DNA from: an uncultured bacterium
GTDB lineage: Bacteria > Schekmanbacteria > GWA2-38-11 > J061
NCBI GenBank assembly: GCA_964549305.1
Contig: CAZJVM010000025.1
Coordinates: forward strand, 1 to 35,524
Reading direction: 5' to 3'
DNA: 35,524 bases
Below, piece after piece: positions 429-35,524 of the stretch. Below the pieces are notes generated by a model, which was given only the letters and a program-made list of their open reading frames with translations, did not search any database and was not told the DNA's origin. A program made the translations under genes and the position numbers. Each line of letters begins with the position of its first letter. Within the stretch, counting starts at the first letter, position 1.

Positions 429-440
429 GAGAATGACAAA

Positions 441-9445: not shown

Positions 9446-9609
9446 ACTATTACGTTTACCCCCCCCATTTTTCGTCAGAGTTTAATGCGGACATTTAATT
9501 GGCGCTCAGGACTTTTGTTTTTCAATATTAAATGGATTATTAGAAAAAGGTATGATATTTTTATTTATTGATTAGAGAACTTAAAAAACGGATTTTTGCA
9601 TTAAAAGGT

Positions 9610-10374: not shown

Positions 10375-10400
10375 ATGTTAACTGTAATAAAGGCAAAAGT

Positions 10401-11390: not shown

Positions 11391-11395
11391 TTGAA

Positions 11396-12103
11396 ATGAA
11401 AGCGGTCATACTTGCAGGCGGACTCGGGACTCGGTTACAACCTCTTACCTTTACAATACCTAAACCGCTAATCCCAATAGGCGAAACGCCAATTCTCGAG
11501 CATATCGTGCTCCATCTGAAAAAATATGGTTTCAGGGAGTTTATACTTTCAGTGGGATACCGTGCCGAGCTTATAAAGACTTATTTTAACGACGGTTCGA
11601 AACTTGGCGTAAAGATATCATATTTTGAGGAAAAGAAACCTTTGGGCACTGCGGGACCTTTAGTTGCAATAAATGACATTTACCCATTTAAAAAGGGTGA
11701 AACCTTTCTTCTGATGAATGGCGATATTCTTACAAAGCTGAACTTTAAAAAGTTTATAGATGAACACAAAAAAAAGAATTGTGAAATGACCGTTGGCATA
11801 AAGAAGTTCGAACAAAAGTTAAGTTTCGGCACAGTGAGAATGCAAAAAGGCGAGATAAGGGATATTGAAGAGAAACCGGTAAAAAAATATGAAATAAGCG
11901 CGGGAATATATTTGATTAATGAGCAGGCAGTTAGAGAAATTCCTAAAAATAAATATTTTACCGTTCCCGAACTTATGAAAAAATTGATTTTGAAGAAAAA
12001 GAAGGTTGGCGGTTATCTGATCAGGGAATACTGGCTCGCAGTTGAGAATTTACAGCACGTTGAAAAAGCTGTGGAAGAAGTAGGTAAGTGGGGAAGGAAA
12101 TAA
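11396..12103 (+). CDS. Sugar-phosphate nucleotidyltransferase (NTP_transferase family)
   Basis: AVILAGGLGTRL.P.T..IPKPL, EKKPLGTAG, MNGDIL, EEKP. No CBS domains. Confidence 0.9.
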   Translation: MKAVILAGGLGTRLQPLTFTIPKPLIPIGETPILEHIVLHLKKYGFREFILSVGYRAELIKTYFNDGSKLGVKISYFEEKKPLGTAGPLVAINDIYPFKKGETFLLMNGDILTKLNFKKFIDEHKKKNCEMTVGIKKFEQKLSFGTVRMQKGEIRDIEEKPVKKYEISAGIYLINEQAVREIPKNKYFTVPELMKKLILKKKKVGGYLIREYWLAVENLQHVEKAVEEVGKWGRK

Positions 12104-13633: not shown

Positions 13634-13701
13634 GTGCCATTCATAACACAGAAAAGTTGATTTGAAAAAGAAGATTTGAACTATGCGACGCAAAAAAAAC
13701 T

Positions 13702-15348
13702 TTAGGGCGTAAGTTCAAATTCTCCAAACGAGTAAAAGGTGTTATTTTTGGAATCAACGATAACAAGTTTCAGATAATACTTCCCTGCCTGCACCTTTGA
13801 TGTATCCCAGTTTCCGAGAAAGTCTTCATAGACGGGGATGGTATAAATAATTCCGTCGTTTACCCAGTTCCCGCTGTCTTTTAATGAATATTCAAAATGG
13901 TAGTTTTTCAATTTTATCGTACTGTCGGGTCCGCTTTTAATTAATGCCGAACCGTAAACTGGAATCAGGTCGCCTAACTTATAAATGTTCCCCGGAGCTG
14001 AAATATTTGCGAGGTAAATGTTGCTCGCCATATAGGCAGTCAAAGACGATTTAGCCCTGACGGGAAGAAGTGGATTATCGATATTTTCCTCAAAACTAAT
14101 GTTCTTCAGATAAATATTGCTGTTGTCAGTGGAAAAAATCGGTGATCCCATAATTCTGCAGGATTCAAAAAATATTTTTGAATCATTGAAACTGCCTATC
14201 CTTACTGAGTTAATCAATGAATTTTTGATTGAAAGCTGTCCTGTAAATTGAGTGCCCAGTGCGGCAGGCCCAAAAATCGAGTTGCTCACAGATGTAAAAC
14301 AGTCTGTAAAAACCATTAACTCATTTATTCCCGAATTTTTTATGCGAAATGTTTCAGCGTATTGGTTGCCCACTCCGGAAAGATAAAGCTGCCAGTAGAA
14401 AATATGGGTGTTTTTCAGTCTTATTACTCTTTCGAATTCATAGAGAGGAAGCTGAAAATCCGAGAAATAACCGGGAGCAAGATTGACAAAATCCTTTCCG
14501 TCATATCCGTAAAGGAAAAGCGCCATCGTTACTGCGGAATCAGAAATTTTGATATCACTGAAAAAACCGGGATTTATTATCCAGTATATATTCGAATCTT
14601 TGGTGGTTATAGTATAGTCGATTCCGTTGATACCGGGACTGCCCGGTATAATTTCTACATTGGACCTTTCAAAAGGACTTTTCAACCCCGATAAATCTGC
14701 CTGCACATAATAGGGAAAGTTTAGCCAGACAGCAATTGAAGTGCTGAGCAGGGTTGCGTTGTCTATATCAATAATAGCTCTGTCACTTGGAATAATTTCT
14801 TTCGGAAATTCGGAATCAATCACATTTAGAGAAGAACTGTCTATAATGTAAGCGATGAGCCAAGAATACTTGTTTGTGTCCAGAATGGAGTTGGCAATAT
14901 CTACAGTTGACGTATCTCTCACATACATATGACTGCTGAATCCGTTTGTAGCGAGAATTGAATTGTTAAAGGAAACTTTTGCGTTGTCCACTATACGAAT
15001 AAAAAAATGAAAATCCTGAAGATTCATAATCGAAATCGTAGAATCTTTTATGGTCAGTTTCCCGTTCCCTATGACAAAAATATTTCCGCTTATTGAAAAA
15101 TTTGAATTCGAAATAATGAGTTCGCCGGAATTCATTATATAAAGGTCGCCGTAAAGGTAATAATCACCGGTTATTGTATATACTTCGTTTGGGTCGTTTC
15201 CGAATCCGTCATAGCCAACCATAAATTCATTGCTTGGACCTCTCAAAAATGCAGATGCTTCATCGACAGGTTGAAGAAGAAGTAATGCGGATATAAGAAA
15301 AAAAGGAAGCAATGATACAAAAACTTTTTTAATTTTAAAATTATTCAC
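13702..15348 (-). CDS. Secreted hypothetical protein, probable beta-helix-like repeat region plus C-terminal Ig-like domain
   Basis: GTG start, signal peptide ending ASA, repetitive I.I.NS.I strands, C-terminal WDTSKVQAGKYYLKLVIVD. Confidence 0.7.
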   Translation of the reverse strand: MNNFKIKKVFVSLLPFFLISALLLLQPVDEASAFLRGPSNEFMVGYDGFGNDPNEVYTITGDYYLYGDLYIMNSGELIISNSNFSISGNIFVIGNGKLTIKDSTISIMNLQDFHFFIRIVDNAKVSFNNSILATNGFSSHMYVRDTSTVDIANSILDTNKYSWLIAYIIDSSSLNVIDSEFPKEIIPSDRAIIDIDNATLLSTSIAVWLNFPYYVQADLSGLKSPFERSNVEIIPGSPGINGIDYTITTKDSNIYWIINPGFFSDIKISDSAVTMALFLYGYDGKDFVNLAPGYFSDFQLPLYEFERVIRLKNTHIFYWQLYLSGVGNQYAETFRIKNSGINELMVFTDCFTSVSNSIFGPAALGTQFTGQLSIKNSLINSVRIGSFNDSKIFFESCRIMGSPIFSTDNSNIYLKNISFEENIDNPLLPVRAKSSLTAYMASNIYLANISAPGNIYKLGDLIPVYGSALIKSGPDSTIKLKNYHFEYSLKDSGNWVNDGIIYTIPVYEDFLGNWDTSKVQAGKYYLKLVIVDSKNNTFYSFGEFELTP

Positions 15349-15389
15349 GGTTTCAATATTTAAGTTGTTAAAGTATTCCTATAAAGCTA

Positions 15390-15405
15390 TGCAAATTTTG
15401 TGCCA
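15390..15405 (-). promoter_or_regulatory. sigma-54 (-24/-12) promoter
   Basis: Minus strand reads TGGCACAAAATTTGCA, with exact GG-N10-GC spacing, about 40 nt upstream of the GTG at 15348. Confidence 0.85.
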
Positions 15406-15481
15406 TATTTAACATTTTGCTGTTTTTCTTATTAAAATCCTGCTAATCAATTGAAATTACAAGCTGAATAATTTTATTGGT

Positions 15482-15604
15482 TGTCGGTTAAAATACCAAG
15501 TGACAGTTTAAAAAAAGAAAAATTGTTCAAAAAACCGACAATGGCTGAATGTAAAAACTTAACCTTCTGATTATTAATGTTATAAAGTGTTCAATATCCC
15601 GACA
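15482..15604. promoter_or_regulatory. Putative enhancer (UAS) array for a sigma-54 activator
   Basis: TGTTCAAAAAACCGACA (15524-15540) and TGTTCAATATCCCGACA (15588-15604) are both TGT-N11-ACA. An inverted third copy TGTCGGTTAAAATACCA lies at 15482-15498. Confidence 0.6.
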
Positions 15605-15658
15605 TATATTTTTACTATATGAGAAATTATTAGTATTTTTCAGGAGCTTATGCAATTT

Positions 15659-17041
15659 TTATTTTAAAATTCTCCTCATGCCCCCTGTAATAAGAATATA
15701 GACAAGCAACGATACTCCTGTTGCAAGGAAGATATTACTTTTATTCAGAAAAATAAATGTAACTGCCATTATTATGCCTGCCAAAAGTGGTTTTCCAAGC
15801 ACTTCAAAAAGTTTGATTTTTATTACATAACGGGAAATATAGTAATTTTGAATCACAATGTAGATGAATGTGGACAAAAGCACTGCCGTTGCCGCGCCCT
15901 TAATTCCGTAAGAGGGAATTAACAGGGTGTTTAGTGTTACCGCAGAGATAACTGAAAAAAAATTAATTTTCAGGTCATTTTCCTGATTGTAGGAAGATAG
16001 CAGGATATAGTCGCCTACGGTGATGAAGGCGAAAGGTAAAAGGCTTACCGCAAGTATCTGCAGTGGGAAAACAGACTCTTTAAACTCCGCCCCAAAGAGC
16101 AGGATTATTATTTTATCGGCACATAGTACAGTGATAATAATTACCGGAATGACCGCTTGTATGAGGTGGTGGATTATATAATTGCAGGTTGCTGAGAATT
16201 TATCGCCGGATTCTTCATAAAGTCGGGTAAGGTGCGGATATAAGGAATTTCCGAAACCCGCAAGTATAAGTTGCGCGGCAGTTATAAATCTCAGGGATGC
16301 GCTGTATAATCCCACATCGCTTGCGGGTCTGAATTTTGAAAGGAAAAGGATATCGGTTTTTGAATATATTGCCGCGAGTATGACTATCAGAGCGAAGGTT
16401 TTCGCGGATTTCAGAAGTTTCAGCCCAAAGGGAAAATCAAATTTGAAAGATATCGACGTCAGAAGTCTCCTCAATATCAATACATTTGCCGCAAATCCGA
16501 GAAAACGGGTGCAGATCATAATCTCTATTAATTCAATGAGCCCGAAACCGTTGATTATGGCAAAAACGCTTATCAGTACTCTTAGGAGATTTTCCAGAAA
16601 GGTTATGAAAGTATAGGGCTTTATATTTTCGATTCCTATGAAAACCCCCTCGCAATTTTCAATGAGCGTTGTGGTAATAAGAATGAAACCTGCGAGTGCC
16701 AGAGCAAGTTGTATTGTCCCGTCATAATTCAGAAGGACTCCTGCGGCATACATAACCGTTGAGCAAAGCAACCCCACGGGTATTGAAAAATAAATTGTAT
16801 GGACGAGATATTTTCCAGCAATCTCCGGCTTTCCCGCGACTTCGCGCGTGAGAAGATACTTGAATCCGAATGCCGCGACAGTCTGAAAAACGGCGATATA
16901 GGAAATGACAATGCTAAAGCCTCCGAGAAGCTCGGATCCGCTGAAGCGCGCCATTACGATAATCAAAATAAAGGAAAAGAATGGCTGAGTCAATCTTGCG
17001 ACTATTAAGAAACCGGTATTTTTAAGCAGTTTTGAGAACAT
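15659..17041 (-). CDS. wzx: Polysaccharide flippase (Wzx, MOP family)
   Basis: Many TM segments, LLKNTGFL, FG...LLTREVA, KTDILFLS...DVGLYSAS, LIPSYGIKGAATA. Confidence 0.9.
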   Translation of the reverse strand: MFSKLLKNTGFLIVARLTQPFFSFILIIVMARFSGSELLGGFSIVISYIAVFQTVAAFGFKYLLTREVAGKPEIAGKYLVHTIYFSIPVGLLCSTVMYAAGVLLNYDGTIQLALALAGFILITTTLIENCEGVFIGIENIKPYTFITFLENLLRVLISVFAIINGFGLIELIEIMICTRFLGFAANVLILRRLLTSISFKFDFPFGLKLLKSAKTFALIVILAAIYSKTDILFLSKFRPASDVGLYSASLRFITAAQLILAGFGNSLYPHLTRLYEESGDKFSATCNYIIHHLIQAVIPVIIITVLCADKIIILLFGAEFKESVFPLQILAVSLLPFAFITVGDYILLSSYNQENDLKINFFSVISAVTLNTLLIPSYGIKGAATAVLLSTFIYIVIQNYYISRYVIKIKLFEVLGKPLLAGIIMAVTFIFLNKSNIFLATGVSLLVYILITGGMRRILK

Positions 17042-17043
17042 AT

Positions 17044-18042
17044 TCAGTCGTTCTTTCCGGCAAGTTTTTCATCTTGATAAATACGAAACCCTTTGTTCGT
17101 GTAATATGTAAAAACTTTGGGATACATAAAAGCCGAAATCCGTCCCGGATTTTCCCTCTTATCGAGCATTCCTTCAAGAAAGGAAACGACGATTTTTTTA
17201 TGAAGTATATGTTTTTTGATGAAACTTTTTATGTGTCCTTTAAGAGTCGCATTCTTTACCACAAGTCCGTATTTTTCGCATAGCATCGGTATATATTCTT
17301 CCATGCCCAGAGCTTCCAGCTTTTCAATGAGTATCCCGAAGTTGTAACCGTGATTTACCTGCTGTCCGCATGCTTCCCTAAATGTATAGGGGTGATTGTG
17401 AAATCCGACGGCATCCTTGTTATACATTATTTTAAGTCCCTTTTTGTGAAGTCTGAAACCCACCTCTACATCTTCGCAACCTATTCTTTTAAATCTTTCA
17501 TCAAACATCCCGTGCGTTATGAAAAAATCTTTCTTGAAAGAGATATTTCCCGTAAAGAAATACCAGCAGGGAACTTCAATTTTATTTTCTATTTCCCTGT
17601 AGGGAAGGTCGCCCCATACTTTCATAAAAGGCGATTTCATCGCTTCTCTGTGAAGTTTGCTCTGCCCGAGTACGGCGAAATATTCCGAAGAATATTTTTC
17701 GTGGAATTTCAAATGCTCACGCAAAAAGTTTTCTGACGCAATGATGTCGTTTCCGATGATAAGCACTAAAACGGCATCTGCGTTTAAAACGCCCATATTC
17801 CTCGCCGGACCAACCCCCTTATGTTCACCCCGGAGATATTTTATTGAGATCGCTGACTTGTCTGCAATCTTTTTCACGATATTTTCGGCACTTGCTTCTC
17901 CCTTGCCGTCGTCAACTACGATGACCTCATATAATCCGGCGTCAACTGTCTGTTTCAGCAGGCTTTGCAGGCATTCTTCAAAAACTTCCACTCTTCCCAT
18001 TGTAGGAATTACAACGCTCAGTAATTTATTTTTTTCATTCAC
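17044..18042 (-). CDS. Glycosyltransferase family 2
   Basis: SVVIPT, EVIVVDDG, GVGPARNMG, FDERF...GCEDVEVGFRL. Confidence 0.9.
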   Translation of the reverse strand: MNEKNKLLSVVIPTMGRVEVFEECLQSLLKQTVDAGLYEVIVVDDGKGEASAENIVKKIADKSAISIKYLRGEHKGVGPARNMGVLNADAVLVLIIGNDIIASENFLREHLKFHEKYSSEYFAVLGQSKLHREAMKSPFMKVWGDLPYREIENKIEVPCWYFFTGNISFKKDFFITHGMFDERFKRIGCEDVEVGFRLHKKGLKIMYNKDAVGFHNHPYTFREACGQQVNHGYNFGILIEKLEALGMEEYIPMLCEKYGLVVKNATLKGHIKSFIKKHILHKKIVVSFLEGMLDKRENPGRISAFMYPKVFTYYTNKGFRIYQDEKLAGKND

Positions 18043-18060
18043 CTGCGAAAGTCTCCGTTA

Positions 18061-18924
18061 TTAAAAACCGTTAAAAGTCACCCATTCTGTATCGGTGAAG
18101 GAATCGGCATAATCGATGAAGTTGTGCCACGCGTCGAGCAGATCACTTTTTTCGCCTTTCCAGTCATCAAAAAAATACCAGTAATGATTTACGCAGATAA
18201 GAGGTTTTTCTTCTCTGCGGCATTCGTCGAATACTTTTACTGCATAATCAAAACATTCCTTTGCGTCCTTTTGAGGAAGGAAAAGGTTTACTCCGAAAAA
18301 AGCTCTTTGCCCTTTGAAAGAAGCTGTTGTGCGGGGCATAATTTTTGATGTGAGTTTTTTTCTAAGCATATATCTCCATTGTTTTATCCGGTCGATTCGC
18401 CCTTTGATATTGAAACTTTCAAAATCAGTGGAGATATTCAATCCTTTTCCAATTATAAAATCGCGCGCTTTTGCGGAAAGCATCTCATAGGGAGGGACAA
18501 CCGTTTTTACGCGAATATCCGGAAAGAGGTTTTCAAGGGTTTTTATTCCTTTGTTAAGATGAGTTTCTATGGATTGTGTATCCTCTTCAAGATACTCGCC
18601 CGTATGGTTGAAACCGTGCAGGAGGATTTCAACGAGTCCTTTGCTTAAATATTCTTTTAGAAAATTGCAAAGCGCTTCATTATCTCCCACCGGAAATTCC
18701 CTGTTTGTCCCTCTGAAAGCAGGCGGCGCGTTCAGGTCAAAATCGGAGTTTAAGATTTTTTTGATGAAATTATGTTTTACCTCTGATGTGGAAATGAATG
18801 GAATTACCGACAAAGAGACGGGATGACCTTTCTCCCAAAGACTGGCATAAACCGTCTCAAGCATTTCAGGCGCCGTGAAAAAGCTCGTGTCGTCATCTCG
18901 TACAATTATTTTCATATTTTCCAT
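18061..18924 (-). CDS. Polysaccharide deacetylase-like protein (CE4/NodB fold, DUF2334-like)
   Basis: IVRDDD, SLSVIP, EILLHGFNH, VPPYE, CVNHYW. Confidence 0.75.
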   Translation of the reverse strand: MENMKIIVRDDDTSFFTAPEMLETVYASLWEKGHPVSLSVIPFISTSEVKHNFIKKILNSDFDLNAPPAFRGTNREFPVGDNEALCNFLKEYLSKGLVEILLHGFNHTGEYLEEDTQSIETHLNKGIKTLENLFPDIRVKTVVPPYEMLSAKARDFIIGKGLNISTDFESFNIKGRIDRIKQWRYMLRKKLTSKIMPRTTASFKGQRAFFGVNLFLPQKDAKECFDYAVKVFDECRREEKPLICVNHYWYFFDDWKGEKSDLLDAWHNFIDYADSFTDTEWVTFNGF

Positions 18925-18985
18925 TATAAGGGATTAAACAGAATATGTCCTGTTTTTGAACAACAGGGCAGTGGAGATGCTTTAC

Positions 18986-19780
18986 TTAAAATGCGCCTCT
19001 TTTTGTGATGATTGCCCAGATGGTTTTAAAAATAGTTTTGATGTCAACGAGCAATGAGTGGGTTTTGACATATTCTACATCAAACTTCAGAGTGTCCTGA
19101 AATCTCAGTCTTCCTCTTCCGTTTATCTGCGCGAATCCCGTAATTCCCGGTTTTACGTCGAGTTTCGTTTTCTGCTCATCGTTATAATACTTAATCATTT
19201 CCGGAATGTCGGGACGAGGACCTACCAAATTCATATTTCCCTTTAAAACGTTTATAAAATTGGGCAATTCGTCAAGACTGGTCTGCCTTAACCATCTTCC
19301 GCATTTTGTAAGGCGGGGGTCTTCGGTTAGCTTGAAATTCATTTTGTTTATTTCTTCTTCCGTATAATCATAGGCATAAAGTTCGGGATAAAGTTCTTTT
19401 GCGTTTTCTTTCATTGTCCTGAACTTATAAAATTTGAATGGCCGCCCTCCAAGGTCCTCAGCTCTTCTGTTTCCTTTCCCCGCGATAAATGAATTGTCCG
19501 TGCCGTGCTGTGAATTTTTTTTACGGGCGTTTTTACCTCTCCTGTTATATCCGATTCGCGTCTGTCTGAATATTGCCGGTCCAGGAGAGTCCATTTTGAT
19601 TATGAGAGCGATAAGAAGGGTCAGTGGAAAGGAAAGAATAAGAATTGTTGCGGACAATAAAATGTTTATCAGACGAAAGACGGGCTTTGCGAAGAAATCA
19701 AGCGCAAATTTCTTCAAAGATGATCTTGCCTTTTTCTTCTCAGCCACAATGAATTTTCCTGTTCCATTCAATGACTTCAT
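18986..19780 (-). CDS. Priming sugar transferase (small monotopic phosphoglycosyl transferase, Bac_transf)
   Basis: IK.DSPGP..FRQ.R.G, YKFRTM, DPRLT..G..LR.TSLDELP, GPRP, KPGITG.AQ. True start may be GTG 19747. Confidence 0.92.
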   Translation of the reverse strand: MKSLNGTGKFIVAEKKKARSSLKKFALDFFAKPVFRLINILLSATILILSFPLTLLIALIIKMDSPGPAIFRQTRIGYNRRGKNARKKNSQHGTDNSFIAGKGNRRAEDLGGRPFKFYKFRTMKENAKELYPELYAYDYTEEEINKMNFKLTEDPRLTKCGRWLRQTSLDELPNFINVLKGNMNLVGPRPDIPEMIKYYNDEQKTKLDVKPGITGFAQINGRGRLRFQDTLKFDVEYVKTHSLLVDIKTIFKTIWAIITKRGAF

Positions 19781-20687
19781 CGACTGTCTCCTCGAGCGAG
19801 CGCGACGGGTTAAAATTCAAGCATTCTTTTGCTTTGGTAATATCGGCAATTGAATTTCTCAACTCTCCAACCTGTTTTTCCTTGTATATTATCTTGTTTT
19901 TATCGGACATTTTTACTCTTACAAGCTTCGCGAGCTCGTTTACCGATGTCGGTTTTTCCGTTCCGATATTAAAACTTCCATTTTTACATTCGCTTTCCAT
20001 TGCAAGAATGTTTGCCTCTGCAATGTCCTCCACGTGTATAAAGTCCCTTCTCTGTTCTCCGTCACCGAATATTTCAATAGCTTCTCCGGCGAGAATCCTG
20101 TTAATGAATATTGTCATTACGCCAACATAGGGAGTAAACTGCTGTCCCGCGCCGAAGGTGTTAAAATACCTCAGAGCAATAGATGATATTCCCATCTCCT
20201 CTCCCATAAGAAGGCAATACTTTTCAGCGGCAAGTTTCGAAATTCCGTATGGTGAAATCGGCTCGAGGGAATGGTTTTCGCTTACAGGGGCAGGTTTTTG
20301 GGAGTCGGCGTATACTGCCATTGATGATGCGTATACAATTTTTCTTACATCCGTATTTCTGCACGAATTTATTATATTTACCGTCCCCATTATGTTCGTT
20401 TCGGCGTCGGTATAAAATTCCTTCATCGATTCTCTTATGGTCACTCTTGCCGCTTCATGAAAAATTATATTGATCCTGTTTTCAGTTAAAATATCCCTTA
20501 CGAGTTTTTTGTCGAGTATATCTCCCTTTATAAATTTTACTTTCGCAGGTATATTCCCGGTCTTCCCCGTTGACAGGTCATCGATTACAAAAACTTCGAG
20601 GTCTTTATCGATGAGTTTTTTTGAAATATGCGAACCGATAAATCCCGCGCCTCCAGTAACGAGAGCTTTTTTATACAGTTTTTTCAT
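19740..20687 (-). CDS. NAD-dependent epimerase/dehydratase (UDP-hexose 4-epimerase-like)
   Basis: TGGAGFIGSH, DDLSTG, SPYGISK, LRYFNTFG, GDGEQRRDFIHV. Confidence 0.9.
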   Translation of the reverse strand: MKKLYKKALVTGGAGFIGSHISKKLIDKDLEVFVIDDLSTGKTGNIPAKVKFIKGDILDKKLVRDILTENRINIIFHEAARVTIRESMKEFYTDAETNIMGTVNIINSCRNTDVRKIVYASSMAVYADSQKPAPVSENHSLEPISPYGISKLAAEKYCLLMGEEMGISSIALRYFNTFGAGQQFTPYVGVMTIFINRILAGEAIEIFGDGEQRRDFIHVEDIAEANILAMESECKNGSFNIGTEKPTSVNELAKLVRVKMSDKNKIIYKEKQVGELRNSIADITKAKECLNFNPSRSLEETVDEVIEWNRKIHCG

Positions 20688-20719
20688 AATAATTGTTTAT
20701 AAAAAAAATTATGTTTTTG

Positions 20720-21667
20720 CTAAAAATAATTTTTACAGCTCAATATTCTTTCAGGGGAAACAATCGAATAACTCAGGTCAACTTCACTGTCAACTACCGT
20801 ATTGCGAAAAATAAGGGAATTGGAAACCGTAATTGGTTTTTTTATAACAACATTATCGCCCACTACGCAATTTTCAATTTTTGCGTCATTCAACTGTACG
20901 TCCTTTCCCAGAAGATTCTCAGAGGGCATTGTCTTTAAAAGCTCTATGTTGCACCTGAGAAGGTCGTGAGGCGATGTGAGGTTTATGTCGGCTTTGATTG
21001 CGCGCGAAGGGACTACAGAAAAACCGAAATCGATTAATATCTGTATGGAATCGGTCAATTCAAACTCATTGCGCATTGCGGTCCTGGGAGTCCTTCTGAT
21101 TGCGTCAAATATATGCGTGTCAAACAGGTATATTCCGCATCCCTTTAAATTCGTTGTCAAATATCTCGGTTTTTCTATTACCTGTATAACCTTGTCCGAG
21201 GAGTCAAGAAGTACAACAAAATTTTTTCTGATTTCCTCGGGTTTTTTTTCGTCAATTACTGCGATAACGGCATTGTTGCCGTCTCTGTCCATAAGTTCAA
21301 CCATTTCGCTCAAATTGTTTGATATAAAGAATATATCTCCCAGAAAAAGGAGAAACTTCGATGAAATATAAGGTTCGATTTTCCCTACTGCGTGGGCGAT
21401 TCCCAGATATTCCCTCTGCTCCACATACTTTATATTTACCCCGAATTTGCTCCCGTCGCCCATATACCTGTCAATCTGATGGCTTAAATGACCCACCACG
21501 AGTATGATGTCTTTAATTCCCGCTTCTTTCATTATATTAATCTGATGCGCTATAAGTGGTTTGTTGCAGATTGGCAGAAGGCTTTTTGGTATTTCCGTGC
21601 TGAATGGCGACATCCTTTTTCCCCTGCCTGCCGCCATTATGACTCCTGTTAATTTTTCTTCTTTCAT
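20720..21667 (-). CDS. Glucose-1-phosphate thymidylyltransferase-like nucleotidyltransferase (long form)
   Basis: MAAGRGKRM.P...PKSLLP, LGIAHAV, LGDIF, IEKP, RNEFELTDSIQ, short C-terminal LbH region. Confidence 0.85.
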   Translation of the reverse strand: MKEEKLTGVIMAAGRGKRMSPFSTEIPKSLLPICNKPLIAHQINIMKEAGIKDIILVVGHLSHQIDRYMGDGSKFGVNIKYVEQREYLGIAHAVGKIEPYISSKFLLFLGDIFFISNNLSEMVELMDRDGNNAVIAVIDEKKPEEIRKNFVVLLDSSDKVIQVIEKPRYLTTNLKGCGIYLFDTHIFDAIRRTPRTAMRNEFELTDSIQILIDFGFSVVPSRAIKADINLTSPHDLLRCNIELLKTMPSENLLGKDVQLNDAKIENCVVGDNVVIKKPITVSNSLIFRNTVVDSEVDLSYSIVSPERILSCKNYF

Positions 21668-21685
21668 TTGATTTCGCAGTTAGGA

Positions 21686-22810
21686 TTATTTATTAACTGA
21701 ATTATAAACTTCATTGTAAACTTCAAGAGTCTTTCTTGCCGTATTTTCCCAGGTAAAAAGCGATGCCCTTGCCAGTCCTTTTTCTATTAATGACTCACGG
21801 ACTGTTTTGTCGTTTATTGCCAGGGCGCATTTTTCGGCGATGTCCTCAATTTTGTAAGGGTCAGCGGTAATTGCCGCATTGCCAACAACTTCAGGCAGGG
21901 AAGTGACATTTGAAGTTACAACGGGAATGCCGCATGCCATTGCCTCGAGGGGAGGGAGTCCGAATCCTTCAAAAAGCGAAGGGAAAACGAACAAATCCGC
22001 TCCGTTGTATATATGCGGAAGATCGGCATAATCTATGTGACCCAATTCGATTACGTCATTTTGGAGTCCGAGGTTTTTAATATCATCTGTAACTCCCTGT
22101 GATTCCCACATCTTTCTTCCTACAAGAAGAAGTTTTTGGCTGATACCCATTTTTTTTTTCATTATCTGAAATGAATCAATGAGCCTTTTGGTGTTTTTCC
22201 TTGCCTGAAGTTTTCCCACATAGAGGATGTAACTGTCGTCGATGCCGTATTTCTTTAAAACAGCATTAACTTTGTCTTTTTCTTTAATCGGACGGTAACA
22301 TTTATCTACTCCCGAATAGATAACCGATATTTTTTCAGGTTCTATTTTAAAAAACTTGATTATGTCCTTTTTGGTTGTCTCGGAAACGGAGATTATTTTC
22401 ACGGCATTTTTAATGCCTTTCCCTAAGAGGAAATTTGCCCGCAGACGAATTTTTGCAGGAAAATATTCAGGATGAATATATGTGCAGAGGTCGTGAACAG
22501 TAAGTATATATTTTTTTGGAGAAACAAGTGAAGGCGCCATACATACGTGAAGAAGATCAATGTTTTCATTATGGACCTCAAAGGGCAGTCCCACGGAAAA
22601 TCGAATCAATTTTGAACGGGGATTTACCGGTTTTGCGGTAAAATTTGTATGGGTTTTCAACATTTCAGACAGACCCTCAACAGATGAACAGAATATTCTG
22701 TACTGATTTTTATTGTCTGTGTCCATAAGCCCTTTGACAAGGCCTAATTCATAGGTTTCAACTCCCCCTCCCTGTGTTCCTATTCTTTCAGCAAAAATTC
22801 CAATATTCAT
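21686..22810 (-). CDS. Glycosyltransferase family 4
   Basis: [44 protein letters not shown]. Confidence 0.93.
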
Positions 22811-22828
22811 TCTTGTTCGTATCTCTTG

Positions 22829-24241
22829 TCATCGGGGTTTTTTTGCCGGGATCTTTTTATCCGACTTTCTCATTACATTTACGGCATAAAGGCTTCTTAG
22901 CTTGGAGTAATAGCGAAAGTTTATTAAACTGCGATCTATTAATTCTATGAAAGCCCTTTTAGGATTGTATTTTATGAATACATTAAATCCGAAATACTGC
23001 CTTATGCGCTTAAGTTTCGAAAATGGAATAGTAGGGTGTTTAACATTTGTTGACGAATAGTAGGAGTTTAAAGTTATTGTTTTGTCCAGCCATCCGTTTT
23101 TTTCGCACAAATCATAAAGGTAGGTGCCTTTATACGCGGTAAAAATTGACACAGCAAGAAAATCGGGCTGAATTTTTCTGTTAATTTCTATGGTTTTTCG
23201 GATGTTTTCAACATTTTCCTGCGGAAGCCCGATCATATTGTATGTATATAGATTCATTCCGTATTTCTTTATGAGACGGCTTCCTTCGATAATCTGCTCA
23301 TCGGTGATGCTTCTTTTAAGAATATGTTTTCTTATTTCAATATCTCCGGATTCCACGCCGATTGATACTCTGTCGCACCCTGCTTCTGAAAGATATTGGC
23401 ACATCTCTTCGTCAATGTTGTTAATTCTTGCGTTGATATGAAAAGGGAGATTTACTTCCTTTTTGAGTTTTTCACATAACTCTTTCACGCGCGATTTTTT
23501 AAGCGTAAAAGTATCATCAAAAAACTCCACTCTTTTTATGTCGTATTTTTTTACCGCGTTTTTAATCTCGTCAATTATGTAATCAGTATTTCTGTAACGC
23601 ACATAACGTCCTTTTTTCTCGTAAAGGCCGGAATAAGTGCGGTTTATACAATATGTGCATTGGTACGGACAACCGCGTGAGCCGAGAAAGGATGCTACCA
23701 TATTGTGATTTTTAAGGTATCTCGGATAATCGTAAATATCCAAATCAAGATAAGGGAGTGAGTCGAGGTCCTGTATTAAGGGCCTGAGGTCATTTTTTAT
23801 GATATTTCCCTTTTTTTTGAACCATATATTTCTGATATCCGTTCTCTTTTCTCCTCTCTCGAGGGATTCCGTAAGTTCGACTATCGCCTCTTCGCCTTCT
23901 CCCAGGCAAATCATATCGAAACATTCTTCCTTTATGCTTTCTTCGGGGGCGATAGTGGGGTGGATGCCTCCTATAATTGTGGGAATTTGGAACTTCTCTT
24001 TAATCAGTTTCGCGACGTACTTTGAATAGGCAAAGTTGCAGGAGAGGGAAGAGAATGCAATCAATTGGGGATTGAATTTTTTCACCTTATTAAGAATCTG
24101 CTCGTCTTTCAGGCCGAATGTGGTGTCTATGAGGTCAACTTCGTGTCCGGCTTTTTTAAGCACCGCGGATAATATGGCAATCCCGATTGATATGTCCTTC
24201 GGGTGCTGTACCACATTTCCGTAAACTAACTGAACTTTCAT
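22829..24241 (-). CDS. Cobalamin-binding radical SAM protein (class B-like)
   Basis: N-terminal B12-binding domain (GGIHPT, GEGE), SRGCPYQCTYC, FFDDTF, GVESG, MIGLP. Confidence 0.92.
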   Translation of the reverse strand: MKVQLVYGNVVQHPKDISIGIAILSAVLKKAGHEVDLIDTTFGLKDEQILNKVKKFNPQLIAFSSLSCNFAYSKYVAKLIKEKFQIPTIIGGIHPTIAPEESIKEECFDMICLGEGEEAIVELTESLERGEKRTDIRNIWFKKKGNIIKNDLRPLIQDLDSLPYLDLDIYDYPRYLKNHNMVASFLGSRGCPYQCTYCINRTYSGLYEKKGRYVRYRNTDYIIDEIKNAVKKYDIKRVEFFDDTFTLKKSRVKELCEKLKKEVNLPFHINARINNIDEEMCQYLSEAGCDRVSIGVESGDIEIRKHILKRSITDEQIIEGSRLIKKYGMNLYTYNMIGLPQENVENIRKTIEINRKIQPDFLAVSIFTAYKGTYLYDLCEKNGWLDKTITLNSYYSSTNVKHPTIPFSKLKRIRQYFGFNVFIKYNPKRAFIELIDRSLINFRYYSKLRSLYAVNVMRKSDKKIPAKKPR

Positions 24242-24253
24242 ATTGTTCTTCTT

Positions 24254-25153
24254 TTATTTTTTAAATTCGTTTAAAAACAGATGAAATAATGTCCTCACAG
24301 TCAAAGTGACGAAAGAAAATAATTTCATAGGCGAAAAAGTACCACTCGCATTGTGCTTGCTATAATAGTTATAAGCTCCTCTGTGAAAGTCAATTATCAT
24401 TTTAGGATTTTTCCTTCTTTCGGGTTGATACCTTTCATAGTGTATAACCTTTGACGAAGGGATGCAGAATATTTTGTAACCTTCATCTTTTGCTCTTTTG
24501 CACCAATCCACATCAGTCCAATAAACGAAAAAATCCTCATCCATAAACTTCAACTTACTTACTACCTTTTTTTTCATCATCATACAAGCGGCTGAAACAT
24601 AGTCAACTTCAAAAGGGTTGGTTGTGTCTATGTTGTCAATGCACATAAACTTTGCGGATATGGGATTGTTCGGAAATATTCTGGTAACGAGTGCTCGCCT
24701 TCCGAAAAGCCCGCTTAAAAGGTTTGGGAATCGTCTCGCGGTTTCCTGAATACTTCCGTCTTCATTGAAAACCCTTGCCCCCACGACTCCGACATCTTCA
24801 TTTTTACGGAGAAAATCAACGAGATTTTGAAGCGCGCGGGGTTTGACTTCTGTATCGCTGTCGAGAAAAAGAATATAATCTCCGCTGATTTTTTTTAGAA
24901 TCTCGTTTATTGCCCGGCTTAATCCCACATTTTCCTTATTCTTCATTAAACGGACTTTGGGAAATTTGGTTTCCACCATATGGGCGCTTCCGTCATTTGA
25001 GTTGTTGTCGAATACGAATATTTCCGTTTCAAGGGAATTTTTTTTGGCAGATACGGATTCAAGGCATTTCTCGATTTCCTTGCAGTTATTGTAATTAACA
25101 ATTGCTATTGATAACATTTTTCTATCGTATTTTGAAAATATGAGTTTGTCCAA
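24254..25153 (-). CDS. Glycosyltransferase family 2 (WbbL/rhamnosyltransferase-like)
   Basis: SIAIVNYN, DNNSNDGS, LDSD, SAACM, MDEDFFVYWTDVDWC. Start may be ATG 25117. Confidence 0.9.
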   Translation of the reverse strand: MDKLIFSKYDRKMLSIAIVNYNNCKEIEKCLESVSAKKNSLETEIFVFDNNSNDGSAHMVETKFPKVRLMKNKENVGLSRAINEILKKISGDYILFLDSDTEVKPRALQNLVDFLRKNEDVGVVGARVFNEDGSIQETARRFPNLLSGLFGRRALVTRIFPNNPISAKFMCIDNIDTTNPFEVDYVSAACMMMKKKVVSKLKFMDEDFFVYWTDVDWCKRAKDEGYKIFCIPSSKVIHYERYQPERRKNPKMIIDFHRGAYNYYSKHNASGTFSPMKLFSFVTLTVRTLFHLFLNEFKK

Positions 25154-25233
25154 TAAGAAAAAATAGTTCGATTCTAATAGGGGGAAAAAACCATAATTCC
25201 ATTTATTTGCGTTTTATATATGTTGCAGTTTTT

Positions 25234-26163
25234 TTAGCTTCGCACGGTGTTAATAAACTTTTTCAATGCTGTCAATCTTGTTTTGCTTTTTTCATCTTTA
25301 TAGATAAGATATTTAAGGCGGGCAAGGGTATATCTTGAAAGAAGTCCGGAAAAATATAGTTTTTCGGCGATAAACGCGCCGGAAGGACTGTTGAAGTTCA
25401 AAAGATAGTCTCTGTATGAAAGTCTGTTTTTCTTTTCCGCTTTTTCGCCAACCTTTAAAACGGATTGATTTTCAAAGTGAATTACTTTTGCCTGCGGTAA
25501 AAATATTATTTTGTAACCCTTTTTCTTAATCCTGTAACACCATTCCTGGTCTTCAAAATAAAGAAAGAAACTTTCATTCAACGGGCCTGTTTTATCGAAA
25601 ACTTTATGGCGCAGCATTATGCAGGCACCGGATACCCAGTCAACTTCAAGGGGTTTTTGTTTTTTAGAGCGCATATAAAGTCCTCTGATTCGCGAAGATG
25701 AGGGAAATAACTTTGTCAATCCGGAAACCTCGCAAAAGATAACGAAAAGCTCAGGAAAGGACCCTGCAGTACTCGGATGAATGTTTCCTTTCTCATCTGT
25801 AAGGGAAGGCCCCACTACGCCGGTGTCCGAATGGTTTTCAAGATAATCAGTCATTTTGTCTACGGCGCCTTCGGTAAGAAGGGTGTCAGGATTCAAAAGC
25901 ATTATGTTTTTCCCTTTACACCGTGACAAGGCGAGATTATTGCCTGCGGCAAATCCGAGGTTTTTTTCGCTTTTTATAATTTCAACATTATTGTGCGTCT
26001 TTTCCAATCGCGCAATGCTATCATCTGTAGACGCGTTATCAGTGACAATAATTTCATAATCTATCCCTTTTACGGTGTTTTTTATGGAATCTACGCATTG
26101 TGTTAAAAGCGCGCCTGTATTCCAGTTCACAATGATTATTGACAGGTCCTTATCAAAATTCAT
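25234..26163 (-). CDS. Glycosyltransferase family 2 (WbbL/rhamnosyltransferase-like)
   Basis: SIIIVNWN, DNASTDDS, NLGFAAGNN, LNPD, VDWVSGAC, FFLYFEDQEWC. Confidence 0.9.
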   Translation of the reverse strand: MNFDKDLSIIIVNWNTGALLTQCVDSIKNTVKGIDYEIIVTDNASTDDSIARLEKTHNNVEIIKSEKNLGFAAGNNLALSRCKGKNIMLLNPDTLLTEGAVDKMTDYLENHSDTGVVGPSLTDEKGNIHPSTAGSFPELFVIFCEVSGLTKLFPSSSRIRGLYMRSKKQKPLEVDWVSGACIMLRHKVFDKTGPLNESFFLYFEDQEWCYRIKKKGYKIIFLPQAKVIHFENQSVLKVGEKAEKKNRLSYRDYLLNFNSPSGAFIAEKLYFSGLLSRYTLARLKYLIYKDEKSKTRLTALKKFINTVRS

Positions 26164-27641
26164 TTTAAGATCTCTGCTGAAACAGGTTTGATATCGTCAG
26201 TCTCTTCATCTTCTATTTTTTTCATTGCAACCAGAGTTCCCCCGTAAAGAAAGAGAATCGTCTGGATCGCTTCTTCTCCGAATAAGTCGATTCCCATATG
26301 AATTGCCGCGCCGCAGAATGAGGAAAGAATACCTATGGTTATTACTGTCATAAGATTATCGCCCGCGCGCATCACTTTTATTCCGGCGGAGAGGTTTTTT
26401 GAGTAAAAGATTAGCAGAAACAGTAATCCAATTAATCCCACTTCCGTTGCAACAATAAGATAGTAATTGTGAACGGGATATCCTATGGTAACATCTTTCG
26501 TATCATAATCGGGAAGATGAATAACCGATGTATTCAACCCGAATCCCAAAACAGGATGGTCTTTGAGCATTTTCAATCCCACTTTGCTCATTTCTATTCT
26601 TTGTTCAAATGCTCCCTTTCTTGTGTTCATAAATTTTTCTATTTTCCCCGTAAGAAAGAAGGACGATATTATCGCGATGAGGCAAACGGTTATAAAAGCT
26701 TCTTTGGGGAGAATTCTCTTCCATATCAAAAGCAGGAAAGCGACGGTAAGCGCGATTGCCGTGCCAATCAATCCGCCTCTGGAAAAAGTAAAGTAAAGCC
26801 CTATGCTCGCGAGGATGAATGCCGAGGCATATAAAATAATTTCGTACCACTTCCTTCTGATAACCGCCAGGCAAAAAATAAGGGGGAGCATCAGCTCGAA
26901 ATACATTGCTTCGATGTTGTGCGGACCAACTGTGCCGCTTCCCCTCATCGTGTCGTCATCGAGTCCGTAACCTACGGTTAACCCCTGAGGTTTATCTTCG
27001 ATGATGTTGCTGGCGTAAGAATATCCCGTAAGACTTACGGAAATCTGGTATTTGTATTCCAGAATGCATATTGCCCCTTGAATTATTGCGCCTATTGCAA
27101 GGCAGATTACGAGTGTTTTTAAATCTTTTTTGGATTTAACGGTGTTCGTTATAAAAATATAGAAGAGCAGAAACTTGATTAATCGCAGTAATTCAAAAAT
27201 GCTGTATGAGAGATTTATCGAATTTACGAATGAAAGAAGCGACCATATAATAAAAAGCGTAAGATAGACTGCCGGTTTGGGAAAAAAGAAACTTTCTCTC
27301 CTAGTGCATAACCTGAATCCCCATATTGCAAAAAGAATGAAAAGAATTATATCGCTGAATAAAATCCGCAATACAGGAGGCGAACCTGAAGGCACTCCGT
27401 ATCTGCCCATTACCGACTCCATAAACTCCCTGCTTCCCAATATTTTGGGAGCTACGAGAGGTATTGCGAGAATAAATATTATAAACCAGTATCGCTTTCT
27501 GTCTTTTGCGAAAATTTGGGAGATAAATACAACGACTCCCGTTATTCCCGCGATTGCAACGGAAAGTTTGAAGTCCATTACAAGGAGTATGATGAAGGCG
27601 AATAGGGCGCTTATCGCCGTTGTAAGCGTAAAATTGAACAT
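26160..27641 (-). CDS. O-antigen ligase/polymerase family membrane protein (Wzy_C)
   Basis: Multi-TM protein, R..GT.G..N, TFSRGG, HPVLGFG, VHNYYLIVATEVGLIG. Confidence 0.85.
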   Translation of the reverse strand: MFNFTLTTAISALFAFIILLVMDFKLSVAIAGITGVVVFISQIFAKDRKRYWFIIFILAIPLVAPKILGSREFMESVMGRYGVPSGSPPVLRILFSDIILFILFAIWGFRLCTRRESFFFPKPAVYLTLFIIWSLLSFVNSINLSYSIFELLRLIKFLLFYIFITNTVKSKKDLKTLVICLAIGAIIQGAICILEYKYQISVSLTGYSYASNIIEDKPQGLTVGYGLDDDTMRGSGTVGPHNIEAMYFELMLPLIFCLAVIRRKWYEIILYASAFILASIGLYFTFSRGGLIGTAIALTVAFLLLIWKRILPKEAFITVCLIAIISSFFLTGKIEKFMNTRKGAFEQRIEMSKVGLKMLKDHPVLGFGLNTSVIHLPDYDTKDVTIGYPVHNYYLIVATEVGLIGLLFLLIFYSKNLSAGIKVMRAGDNLMTVITIGILSSFCGAAIHMGIDLFGEEAIQTILFLYGGTLVAMKKIEDEETDDIKPVSAEILK

Positions 27642-27688
27642 TCTCTTACCGGTTTGTGCAGTAGTAATACATTATAAAAATGTATTAT

Positions 27689-28411
27689 CTAAAGTCGTTT
27701 GTAAATAAATCTCGGAATAAAATGTTTTCTGCGGTTTATAATCGCACCCAGTAAATTGGCGTTTCTTTTTTCAAGATTTAACCTTACCTTTTCAACAATC
27801 TGACGGCGTGTTTTATGTGCCTGAATAACAAGAATGGTGCCGTCAACATAAGGGGCGATAAAGAGCGAATCGGGATAATTATTCAAAGGCGCGCTGTCAA
27901 TGATGATAAAATCATAATCTTTTTTCAGTCCGTCATTGAGAATCGTTTTTATTTTATCTCCATTAAAACCCGGAGCAAGTTTGTCTCCTTTTTTCATAGC
28001 GGGAGCAATGTAAAGATTGTCTATGTCAGTTTTTCTTACGGTTTGTCGAAAATCGACTTCCTTGTCCGCAGTGAAGCAGTCTTTTACTACCGGTGTATCA
28101 GATTCGGCGAATCGGGAAAAGAAAGATGACCTGAAATTCATATCGATTAAAAGCACGGATTTGTTGTCTGTTTTCGACAATGTTTTTGCAAGGTGCAGAG
28201 CGATGAATGTGGTTCCTTCCCTGTGTAATGATGAGGTGAGCAGAATAATTTTAGGTGATTTGCCTCTATTGATATTTTCCCCGTCGCCTTCTGACATATT
28301 ATGCAATACGATTCCGTTTGCCAGTTGATAGAGCGAGTTGGAAACATCGCCGGGAAGGGATTTTCTGAAATATTTTTCCTTTAAATTTATCGTATCCATT
28401 TTGTTTGGCAA
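27689..28411 (-). CDS. CpsD/CapB-family BY-kinase domain with degenerate Walker A
   Basis: TSSLHREGTT (no Lys), LLIDMNFR, YDFIIIDSAP, DGTILVI, LLGAIIN. Confidence 0.85.
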   Translation of the reverse strand: MPNKMDTINLKEKYFRKSLPGDVSNSLYQLANGIVLHNMSEGDGENINRGKSPKIILLTSSLHREGTTFIALHLAKTLSKTDNKSVLLIDMNFRSSFFSRFAESDTPVVKDCFTADKEVDFRQTVRKTDIDNLYIAPAMKKGDKLAPGFNGDKIKTILNDGLKKDYDFIIIDSAPLNNYPDSLFIAPYVDGTILVIQAHKTRRQIVEKVRLNLEKRNANLLGAIINRRKHFIPRFIYKRL

Positions 28412-28428
28412 ATTTCTTTCATAGATAA

Positions 28429-29859
28429 TTAAAACCGGTATTTTCTTTTTACTTCCCTGATGGAAGTGATGACCGGTAAATTGAGATAATTTTCCACATC
28501 TTCAACATTTTTAATCGAGTGGTCGAGATATTCGGAATAGAATGCCAGGGCAATTCCGCCGAATAATCCCATTAACGCGCCTATGATTAATACGAGTTTT
28601 TTCCGGGGTTTTGTGGGTTTATAGGGAGGATATGAATAACTGATAACTCTTACGTTAGCTATCTTTGCCGAGTCCATTACTTTCGATATTCGCGACTCTT
28701 CGAGCTTTTTCAAATAAAGTCTGTAATTGTTTTCAGTGATATTTAAGTTTCTCTTTATCCTTAAAAGCTCAATTTCCTTGTCTCCGATTTTTTTGAATTC
28801 CTCTTCACTCGATTTCAACTCATCCTCAATTGCTCTACCTTTTTCCTTCAATGCGGCAAGACGTACCTGCGCGTCGAGAAGTTTGTCTTCAAGTTTTGGT
28901 ATGATTATGGGAAATGTTGGGTTTAACAGGGAGTTGTTGTCGGTTGCAGTGACGTCATCATTGCCTCTGTTTTCAACCGGCAATGAATCCGAGATTTGGG
29001 ATTTCAATTCCTCGACCTCTTTTTCGGATTTGTAAATATCTCCCATGTTTTCCTGAAGAGAAGTTTTAAGTTTTGAAATTCTTTCCACAATAGTTTTTTT
29101 CTGATTCTCCGTAGAGATGATTCCCCATTCCTTTCTGAATTTCTGCAATTCCCTTTCTCTTATGGAAAGCTGGTCTTTCAGATTTACGGATTCCGATTTG
29201 AAAAGCTCCAAAACTCCCGGAGTTTTGTATAACTCCGTGCGGTAATCCATATAAAAGCGAATCAGGGTATTGACAACTGTCGACGCGATGACGGGATTTC
29301 CCCACATTAATTCTATCTTTATGACATTTGAATATTTTACCGAGCTTACATCGAGACTTTTCTGAATGAGATAAACCGCCGCATCGTGATCGCTTAATTT
29401 TTTTAACAGTCCGATAGCATATAAAGAGTTATAGAAGGTGTCCTTTACTTTGTTGACTGCTTTGACTGCGTAATATTTTACGAGTTTCAGTAATGTTTCC
29501 GGTTTTGGTGAATCGGGAAAGAGGTAATCCAGTCCAAGTTCGTTTACTGTCTTTTCAACAAGAAAATTGTTGTTTATTATTTCGATTTCCGAATTGACCT
29601 GCTCTTTCGTAACTCCGAAGGAGAGTACCTGCTGTGATCCCGTTAATACTGATGGCACTGAAGAGTTTTCTCTGCCGAGTTTCACCAAAAGGGTTGCCTC
29701 TGCTGTATATTTTTGAGGCCAAACATAAAGTCCGAGGGCGACAAAGATTATGGTTAAAACAAAAAAAGTCAGTATCTTCAGCTTTTGTCTGAAAAAACTG
29801 TTCAACAGGTCGCGTGTGGATATCTGTTTTTCCGGGTTTTGATTGTTTGACATTCGCAC
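28429..29859 (-). CDS. Polysaccharide co-polymerase / chain-length determinant (GumC/Wzc periplasmic part)
   Basis: N-terminal TM, KYTAEATLLV, coiled coils, Pro-rich PPYKPTKP before the C-terminal TM, EYLDHSIK...VE..L.LPV. Confidence 0.9.
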   Translation of the reverse strand: MRMSNNQNPEKQISTRDLLNSFFRQKLKILTFFVLTIIFVALGLYVWPQKYTAEATLLVKLGRENSSVPSVLTGSQQVLSFGVTKEQVNSEIEIINNNFLVEKTVNELGLDYLFPDSPKPETLLKLVKYYAVKAVNKVKDTFYNSLYAIGLLKKLSDHDAAVYLIQKSLDVSSVKYSNVIKIELMWGNPVIASTVVNTLIRFYMDYRTELYKTPGVLELFKSESVNLKDQLSIRERELQKFRKEWGIISTENQKKTIVERISKLKTSLQENMGDIYKSEKEVEELKSQISDSLPVENRGNDDVTATDNNSLLNPTFPIIIPKLEDKLLDAQVRLAALKEKGRAIEDELKSSEEEFKKIGDKEIELLRIKRNLNITENNYRLYLKKLEESRISKVMDSAKIANVRVISYSYPPYKPTKPRKKLVLIIGALMGLFGGIALAFYSEYLDHSIKNVEDVENYLNLPVITSIREVKRKYRF

Positions 29860-31158: not shown

Positions 31159-31188
31159 TTGACATCCCACCATACTATTGCTAATTAT
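31159..31188 (+). promoter_or_regulatory. Possible sigma-70 promoter of the HemF-like/AOR operon
   Basis: TTGACA (31159-31164), 17 nt, then TAATTA(T) preceded by TG (extended -10). SD GGGGAGG before ATG 31219. Confidence 0.45.
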
Positions 31189-32025: not shown

Positions 32026-33141
32026 ATGAGTATAAAAGCAGAATTTGTGAATTATGTTAAAAACGAAGTAGGAATTCCCCTCGTTGGAGTTGTCGCGCCT
32101 GATGACTATCCCGCGGAGGATTATGAAAGAATCGCCCACGTCCAGAAAATATTCGCAAAAGCGACACCTCTTTCAGGCGGTATCGATACGGTATTTCAAC
32201 CCCGTGATTTTCTTCCCGAGGCAAAGTCTGTAATCATTACCGCTTCACCTGCCTATATCAAAAAAGACTTCACATTCGAAGAATGCAAAAAAGACCTGAT
32301 AGGTACGGCAGAGGCAACACACGTCAATACGAGTTATTTACAGACTAACGCTGAACGGGGCGCAAAGGTTTCTGACTTTTTCAAGGACAGGGGATATCAG
32401 TGTTATTCTCTTAATGCCGGTTCATTCCCTATGAAATTAATGGCATCAAAATGCGGAGTCGGTCATTACGGCAAGAATGCAATCATACAGCATCCCGATT
32501 ACGGCGCCTGGATTTCCCTTTCAGGATATGTTACCGACGCGGAGCTTGAACCGGACTCACCCCTTGAAAAAGACTGCGGCGAGTGTGACCTTTGCCAAAA
32601 AGCTTGTCCTACGGATGCCCTTAGAGAAGCTTACAGATGCGATATGACGAAGTGTATTGATTTTCATCTTGGACATAACAAACACTTTGTCCCTCCGGAG
32701 ATTCGCGATAAATGCGGAAATCTGCTCGGTGAGGGATGCACTGCCTGCAGGGATGCCTGCCCTAAAAATAAAAATCTTTCACCTATTGAAGGTTTTACTG
32801 TGCCTGATGAACTGCTTCACCCGAAAATTCTGGAAATTATGAACATAAGCGACGAGGAATGGGACAACGGATTTGCAATGACCCTTATGGGTTTTTTCCT
32901 TATGGATAAAAAATACCTGCTCAGAAATGCCGCAGTAGGACTTGGCAATTTTCAAGATGAGCGCGCAGTGGGAGTCCTTGGTGAAATGCTTCACGCGGGA
33001 CCCGACGAAGTGCGGGGTTATGCGGCGTGGGCACTGGGAAAGATAGGAGGAAAAAAATCCAAAGAACTTTTAAATTCTGCATTGAATAATGAGGAAGATG
33101 AAGATATAACCGGTGAAATAAAATTTGCACTTGATATGTAA
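32026..33141 (+). CDS. QueG/reductive-dehalogenase-superfamily cobalamin, 2x[4Fe-4S] reductase with C-terminal HEAT repeats
   Basis: P..FLPEAKSVI, A..CGVG.YGKN......YGAW, CGECDLCQKACP, KC, GCTACRDACP, RNAAVGLGN...VRGYAAWALGKIG. Confidence 0.85.
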   Translation: MSIKAEFVNYVKNEVGIPLVGVVAPDDYPAEDYERIAHVQKIFAKATPLSGGIDTVFQPRDFLPEAKSVIITASPAYIKKDFTFEECKKDLIGTAEATHVNTSYLQTNAERGAKVSDFFKDRGYQCYSLNAGSFPMKLMASKCGVGHYGKNAIIQHPDYGAWISLSGYVTDAELEPDSPLEKDCGECDLCQKACPTDALREAYRCDMTKCIDFHLGHNKHFVPPEIRDKCGNLLGEGCTACRDACPKNKNLSPIEGFTVPDELLHPKILEIMNISDEEWDNGFAMTLMGFFLMDKKYLLRNAAVGLGNFQDERAVGVLGEMLHAGPDEVRGYAAWALGKIGGKKSKELLNSALNNEEDEDITGEIKFALDM

Positions 33142-35481: not shown

Positions 35482-35520
35482 AAATTCCTTCTCTCATTAA
35501 TCGGGAGAAGGAATTTTTTT
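35482..35520 (+). terminator. Intrinsic terminator closing the AOR operon
   Basis: AAATTCCTTCTCTC (35482-35495) pairs with GGGAGAAGGAATTT (35503-35516) with one G-U pair, followed by a T run. Confidence 0.85.
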
Positions 35521-35524
35521 ATAC

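Follow-up and report, generated by a model that had tools for sequence, protein, structure and literature searches.

We analyzed a stretch of DNA of 35,524 nucleotides (here referred to as the window), contig CAZJVM010000025.1 of assembly GCA_964549305.1 from an uncultured bacterium of the Schekmanbacteria, and focused on a gene near its end whose product resembles the epoxyqueuosine reductase QueG. An original prediction had described this product as a protein of QueG architecture that lacks the catalytic and tRNA-binding motifs of QueG, and had overlooked that its gene shares an operon with genes for a tungsten-type aldehyde oxidoreductase and a HemF-like protein. The gene is the second of four on the forward strand between positions 31219 and 35447, in the order HemF-like, QueG-like, worS, and worL, with gaps of 21, 36, and −4 bases (Table 1). 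Its open reading frame (ORF) opens with ATG and is preceded by an AGGAG-type site. The candidate promoter of the unit is argued by its position alone, because the number of promoter-like sites is at chance level (12 found versus 11.6 expected in shuffles); the hairpin that ends the unit is the longest of 12 such sites in the region.

TABLE 1 Features of the four-gene unit and of the remainder of the window
Feature	Position	Strand	Remarks
Candidate sigma-70-like promoter	31159..31188	+	TTGACA-18-AATTAT, 10/12 matches; 30 bases before the first gene
HemF/coproporphyrinogen-oxidase-like protein, 261 aa	31219..32004	+	PF01218, 94 bits (cut-off 31.8); rewired active-site region
QueG-fold protein, 371 aa	32026..33141	+	Nitroreductase-type cobalamin domain, 2x[4Fe-4S] domain, HEAT tail; without the QueG proton relay
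WorS/AorA-type ferredoxin subunit, 161 aa	33178..33663	+	Pfam Fer4 families; overlaps worL by 4 bases
WorL/aldehyde:ferredoxin oxidoreductase catalytic subunit, 595 aa	33660..35447	+	AFOR_N and AFOR_C
Intrinsic-terminator-like hairpin	35482..35524	+	14-pair stem with T tail; ends the four-gene unit
HigB-like toxin and helix-turn-helix antitoxin pair	150..740
Exopolysaccharide cluster	9568..29859		Wza, Wzz, Wzy, flippase, glycosyltransferases, epimerases
B12-binding radical SAM gene	22829..24241		Inside the exopolysaccharide cluster

A QueG fold without the QueG proton relay

The nearest solved structure to the protein, across its whole length, is QueG, and Bacillus subtilis QueG (PDB 5d08) matches it with a phmmer E value of 2.5e-43. 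Cysteines at positions 184, 187, 190, 194, 210, 238, 241, and 245 match all eight cluster ligands of QueG (C188 to C247), and Pfam places Fer4_16 at residues 184 to 248 and HEAT_2 at residues 296 to 366. The predicted Bacillus-type QueG layout is thus borne out by the structural match, the cysteines, and the HEAT tail, but the Pfam search gave no match to QueG_DUF1730. Both the two-[4Fe-4S] cysteine pattern and the fusion of a nitroreductase-type cobalamin domain to a ferredoxin domain are features of class III cobalamin enzymes. With the QueG profile TIGR00276, the protein scores 145.3 bits and falls below the curated cut-off of 200, which was reached in 6 of 14 control genomes. It is acidic (isoelectric point [pI] 5.02, net charge −17), with a pI in the lowest 6.4% of 1180 ORFs of 250 to 500 amino acids from the same genome (a crude ORF set with a median pI of 8.1), in which QueH has a pI of 9.3 and Tgt a pI of 7.6.

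Residues were mapped by alignment to B. subtilis QueG (5d08) and by hhalign to an annotated Virgibacillus QueG. The catalytic D-Y-H motif and Asp134 of QueG are absent: Asp104 and His106 are replaced by Ser103 and Leu105 around a retained Tyr104 (the equivalent of Tyr105), and Asn130 stands in place of Asp134. The register of the motif was off by one in one of four alignments, and in none of them does His or Asp fall at these positions. The four motifs on which the original prediction was built (TSYLQ, LNAGS, FPMKLMA, and GFFLMDKK) all appear in the sequence as written; the reported loss of DYH holds for its Asp and His but not for its Tyr. The claimed Arg-to-Lys change is real (Arg141 to Lys137) but is not diagnostic of a non-QueG protein, because Lys is also found there in 11 of 100 proteins with intact His106 and Asp134. 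QueG Gln220 is His217 here.

The tRNA contacts are lost only in part. Trp294 and Arg295, the wobble-base/U35 contacts, are replaced by Leu292 and Met293, and a basic residue at 294/295 is found in 92 of the 100 QueG-motif proteins versus 4 of 89 members of the clade to which this protein belongs (clade A, below). Lys222 is retained as Lys219, Lys297 and Lys298 as Lys295 and Lys296, and the Arg302 equivalent is also kept; at the positions of Lys222 and Lys297, each of the 89 clade A members has a basic residue. To describe the protein as lacking tRNA-binding motifs was therefore an overstatement.

A family separate from QueG

A homologue search returned 84 proteins at E ≤ 1e-40 among 2356 candidates, of which 82 (37 to 100% identity) are of the same type and 2 are ordinary QueG; the protein is a family member and not a decayed gene. 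Its closest named relative, 78% identical, is labeled Candidatus Schekmanbacteria, and the matches in the ESM Atlas are only to automatically named epoxyqueuosine-reductase-like or hypothetical clusters. Homologues, profile matches, and sequences from fetched loci were pooled into 270 distinct sequences, from which a FastTree phylogeny of 142 representatives was built (359 columns, midpoint root, RdhA left out). In this tree, the protein falls outside the QueG sequences: clade A and its sister clades B and C form one group (support of 1.0) apart from the proteins with His106 and Asp134. Between the two stand a number of further lineages that bear HEAT repeats but lack the relay, and non-QueG paralogs of the QueG fold are numerous.

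Residue counts refer to sequences of at least 330 amino acids (89 in clade A, 20 in B, 6 in C, and 100 with the QueG motif). Asp134 is found in 1/89 clade A members and His106 in none, Lys at the 141 equivalent in 88/89, and Tyr104, kept here, in only 27/89; position 130 is mostly Val, Phe, Ala, or Ile. The most conserved feature is the set of eight cysteines (complete in 88/89), and further cysteines at 87, 126, 143, and 205 are conserved in 76 to 88 of the 89. Conservation of the GKN hairpin and of the basic residue that lies under the corrin ring equals that in QueG. Because the QueG set was defined by His106 and Asp134 and clade A partly by an HNK motif, counts at those positions are true by definition; independent support for the conservation in clade A comes from a homology-selected alignment, in which Lys137, Asn218, and Lys219 are invariant and Thr47, His99, His217, and Glu236 are conserved in at least 90% of sequences.

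Queuosine synthesis and cobalamin use

The source genome (2.94 Mb, 100% complete) carries queC, queF, tgt, and queA together with QueH, and a search of it found no gene above the QueG (TIGR00276) cut-off. QueH is likewise present in 4/4 relatives, and the QueG-like protein is not needed for queuosine. Nor is it the only gene of its kind, as contig C10 (positions 50682 to 51710) encodes a second paralog, which belongs to clade C and lacks the relay. The view that the protein is not QueG is thus well supported, because it lies outside QueG in the tree, is not the only such gene, and occurs with QueH in a genome whose queuosine pathway is complete. The clade C paralog precedes a flavin mononucleotide (FMN)-reductase-like gene and follows small genes that are probably ferritin/rubrerythrin-like; the gene upstream is the same in two relatives (G001 and G003). 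Two short QueG-like proteins without the HEAT tail are encoded at C14:26319-27014 (231 amino acids) and C12:17333-17962 (209 amino acids). Use of B12 is heavy, with 24 B12-binding-domain matches, most of them in ORFs of 450 to 680 amino acids.

Among 61 genomes in a sample of relatives, the family is present in five, which are the five of this order. It recurs in one deltaproteobacterial class, where 22/42 genomes carry it in as many as three paralogs; among 301 genomes of that phylum, it is present in 6, every one of them from the same class. None of the 42 genomes of the class passes the QueG cut-off, and QueH is present in 37 of them, including 18 of the 22 that bear the family.

An operon with an aldehyde oxidoreductase

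WorL has its best PDB matches to 9mqx_D (E value of 2e-193) and 1aor (1.7e-181), and WorS (pI 4.95) has 16 cysteines that are invariant across five orthologs and would bind four predicted [4Fe-4S] clusters. From their sequences, the pair is assignable to Class II WorLS in the scheme set out in PMC13328260 (the AOR clade of 1aor, 8c0z, and 9mqx), in which a 16-cysteine worS likewise directly precedes worL; here, QueG-fold and HemF-like genes stand in front. The main text of that paper does not contain the terms QueG, epoxyqueuosine, cobalamin, or coproporphyrinogen. Tungsten content and aldehyde activity of WorL are predicted by homology. Each of the five genomes of this order has QueG-like, worS, and worL in succession, between flanks that differ; in three of them, the HemF-like gene heads the unit. 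There are 13 aldehyde:ferredoxin oxidoreductase genes in the source genome. At locus L210 (G076:C137, 2437-7500), a clade B QueG-like gene, a gene for a 287-amino-acid iron-sulfur protein, an aldehyde oxidoreductase gene, and an FMN-reductase-like gene form an independent run on one strand.

The HemF-like neighbor

The PDB matches of the HemF-like protein are to coproporphyrinogen oxidases only, and its NCBIfam HemF score of 103 bits is below the equivalog cut-off of 297. It has DDG in place of the DRG motif and QHGEW in place of RRGRY. Asp400, Arg262, and Arg401 are reportedly catalytic in coproporphyrinogen oxidase, and we assume that they map onto these motifs. The genome has nine HemF-like paralogs (in the window and on contigs C3, C8, C9, C30, C34, C66, C79, and C82), three of which lie at most three genes from an aldehyde oxidoreductase, compared with 2.4% of all genes (binomial P of 0.001, calculated post hoc with this locus counted in). 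In the deltaproteobacterial class, aldehyde oxidoreductases of at least four types neighbor 9 of 21 HemF-like ortholog loci (L167 to L196, flanks of at most 1.5 kb). HemF-like genes seem to be tied to these enzymes more strongly and more generally than the QueG-like gene is. HemF-like genes occur in 33 of the 42 genomes, comprising all 22 with the family and 11 of the 20 others; the nine genomes without them, which carry consecutive or near-consecutive handles, may be one lineage. At L192 (872-2414), a gene for a B12-binding (corrinoid) protein directly follows the HemF-like gene, and the ortholog of G003 (L118, G003:C11:259470-262658) appears broken or partial. According to PMC10151467, Schekmanbacteria hold bilin-reductase-like proteins, whose fold HemF shares, but in a profile search, the HemF-like protein showed no sequence relationship to bilin reductases; a tetrapyrrole-related substrate is a lead only.

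Proposed function and alternatives

The original prediction went on to propose a cobalamin-dependent reductase that acts on a small molecule and not on tRNA; its non-QueG part stands, and its reductase part is the best reading but an inferred one. We favor, with about even confidence, a cobalamin/[4Fe-4S] small-molecule reductase that would take low-potential electrons, in this lineage, from the adjacent WorSL. WorL would oxidize an aldehyde, and the electrons would run through WorS, with its four clusters, to the two clusters of the QueG-like protein. Base-off cob(II)alamin would be reduced to cob(I)alamin, with Lys137 below the ring in the place of Arg141. Co(I) would attack the substrate in a rebuilt pocket, putatively lined by the clade-specific Thr47, Glu96, His99, His217, Asn218, and Glu236 and a hydrophobic LMGFFLM segment; the retained Lys219/Lys295/Lys296 patch may bind an anionic group of the substrate or a partner. 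Aldehyde oxidation has a couple near −580 mV, which fits the potentials reported for the clusters of QueG (−575 and −510 mV) and for the cob(I)alamin couple (−530 to −610 mV). The cobalamin domain probably still binds B12, given the QueG-like conservation of its GKN hairpin and of the basic residue below the ring.

Several observations weigh against this reading. Both the QueG-like protein and WorS are acidic, which lends no support to direct docking. CobS was not found in the source genome, which must salvage cobamide. QueG residues Arg57, Ser216, and Asp241, cobalamin contacts in that enzyme, are changed in the protein. No conserved acid replaces Asp134, so that proton delivery is not accounted for, and the one Tyr that is the only active-site residue common to all class III enzymes (PMC4646009), positioned above the corrin, is the residue that most clade A members lack. 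No sequence motif proves B12 binding in class III (PMC4646009). Outside the order, an aldehyde oxidoreductase lies at most two genes from the family gene in 2/20 loci (L204 and L210), and none was seen near it in 14 further metagenome loci, many of them short (a 15th, L032, repeats the arrangement of G004 and was left out); WorSL is therefore not an obligate partner. The synteny seen inside the order (five genomes) may go back to a single ancestral event.

Cobalamin itself could instead be the substrate, either through CblC-like removal of the upper ligand or through supply of cob(I)alamin to B12 clients via the HEAT tail, with WorSL as the donor. We think this unlikely, as no cobamide transport or synthesis gene was recognized beside the family gene in the loci read (neighbors judged by BLAST and N termini), the clade-specific polar residues Glu96, His99, His217, Asn218, and Glu236 look like a dedicated pocket, and the deltaproteobacterial class has B12-binding domains in 42/42 genomes but the family in 22. 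A B12-free iron-sulfur relay or accessory subunit, through which WorSL would deliver electrons elsewhere (to the HemF-like protein, for example), would agree with the prominence of the eight cysteines, the additional conserved cysteines, and the changes at some of the cobalamin contacts; it is less probable still, given that the whole cobalamin domain is kept, with its invariant basic residue 137 and GKN hairpin, and that the family gene usually occurs without WorSL.

Least probable, and by our estimate very much so, is a divergent QueG or another RNA-modification enzyme that still binds the anticodon loop. The protein has lost the relay, scores below the TIGR00276 cut-off, lies outside QueG in the tree, and is acidic, and it occurs with multiple paralogs, QueH, and redox-metabolic neighbors. 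On the other side are QueG as the closest solved structure over the full length, the retained equivalents of Lys222, Lys297, Lys298, and Arg302, the basic 294/295 residue of four clade A members, and the housekeeping or nuclease-like genes that adjoin some members. In one sub-lineage (loci L027, L031, L105, L108, and L203), the QueG-like gene follows a conserved gene of 257 to 261 codons, whose product presumably resembles a YprB/RNase-H-like protein, a weak hint toward an RNA enzyme.

Relation to known cobalamin enzymes

Relative to QueG (B. subtilis 5d08, 5d0b, and 5t8y; S. thermophilus 5d6s), the subfamily differs in the catalytic and wobble-base residues, His217, the hydrophobic segment, acidic charge, profile score, separate clade, and redox operon. 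Reductive dehalogenases such as PceA and NpRdhA are also distant: the protein scores 46 bits with TIGR02486 against a cut-off of 160, has a HEAT tail, and belongs to a clade in which the active-site pair (Tyr and the residue at position 130) is not conserved, and no membrane-anchor gene was seen beside the QueG-like gene at the loci of the five genomes of the order. CblC/MMACHC, which has no ferredoxin or HEAT domain (PMC4646009), is 10 to 13% identical to the protein. A literature search, mostly at title level, found no description of the subfamily or its linkage to WorSL.

Two chemistries are known for class III, epoxide reduction on tRNA and dehalogenation; little has been learned about the redox partners of these enzymes, and there are probably additional families (PMC4646009). 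It is a rather doubtful prospect that the subfamily represents a third enzyme family of this chemistry and, with WorSL and a B12 subunit, a new WOR system in which aldehyde oxidation drives the formation of Co(I) and which works with HemF-like proteins in an undescribed anaerobic reduction, possibly of carboxylated pyrrole or tetrapyrrole breakdown products. Many members are labeled "epoxyqueuosine reductase" in genomes that use QueH, which makes the subfamily a source of misannotation. The operon link is limited to one lineage. The subfamily offers a concrete candidate for a further class III family with a candidate electron donor encoded alongside, open to testing with the established expression methods described in PMC7585037.
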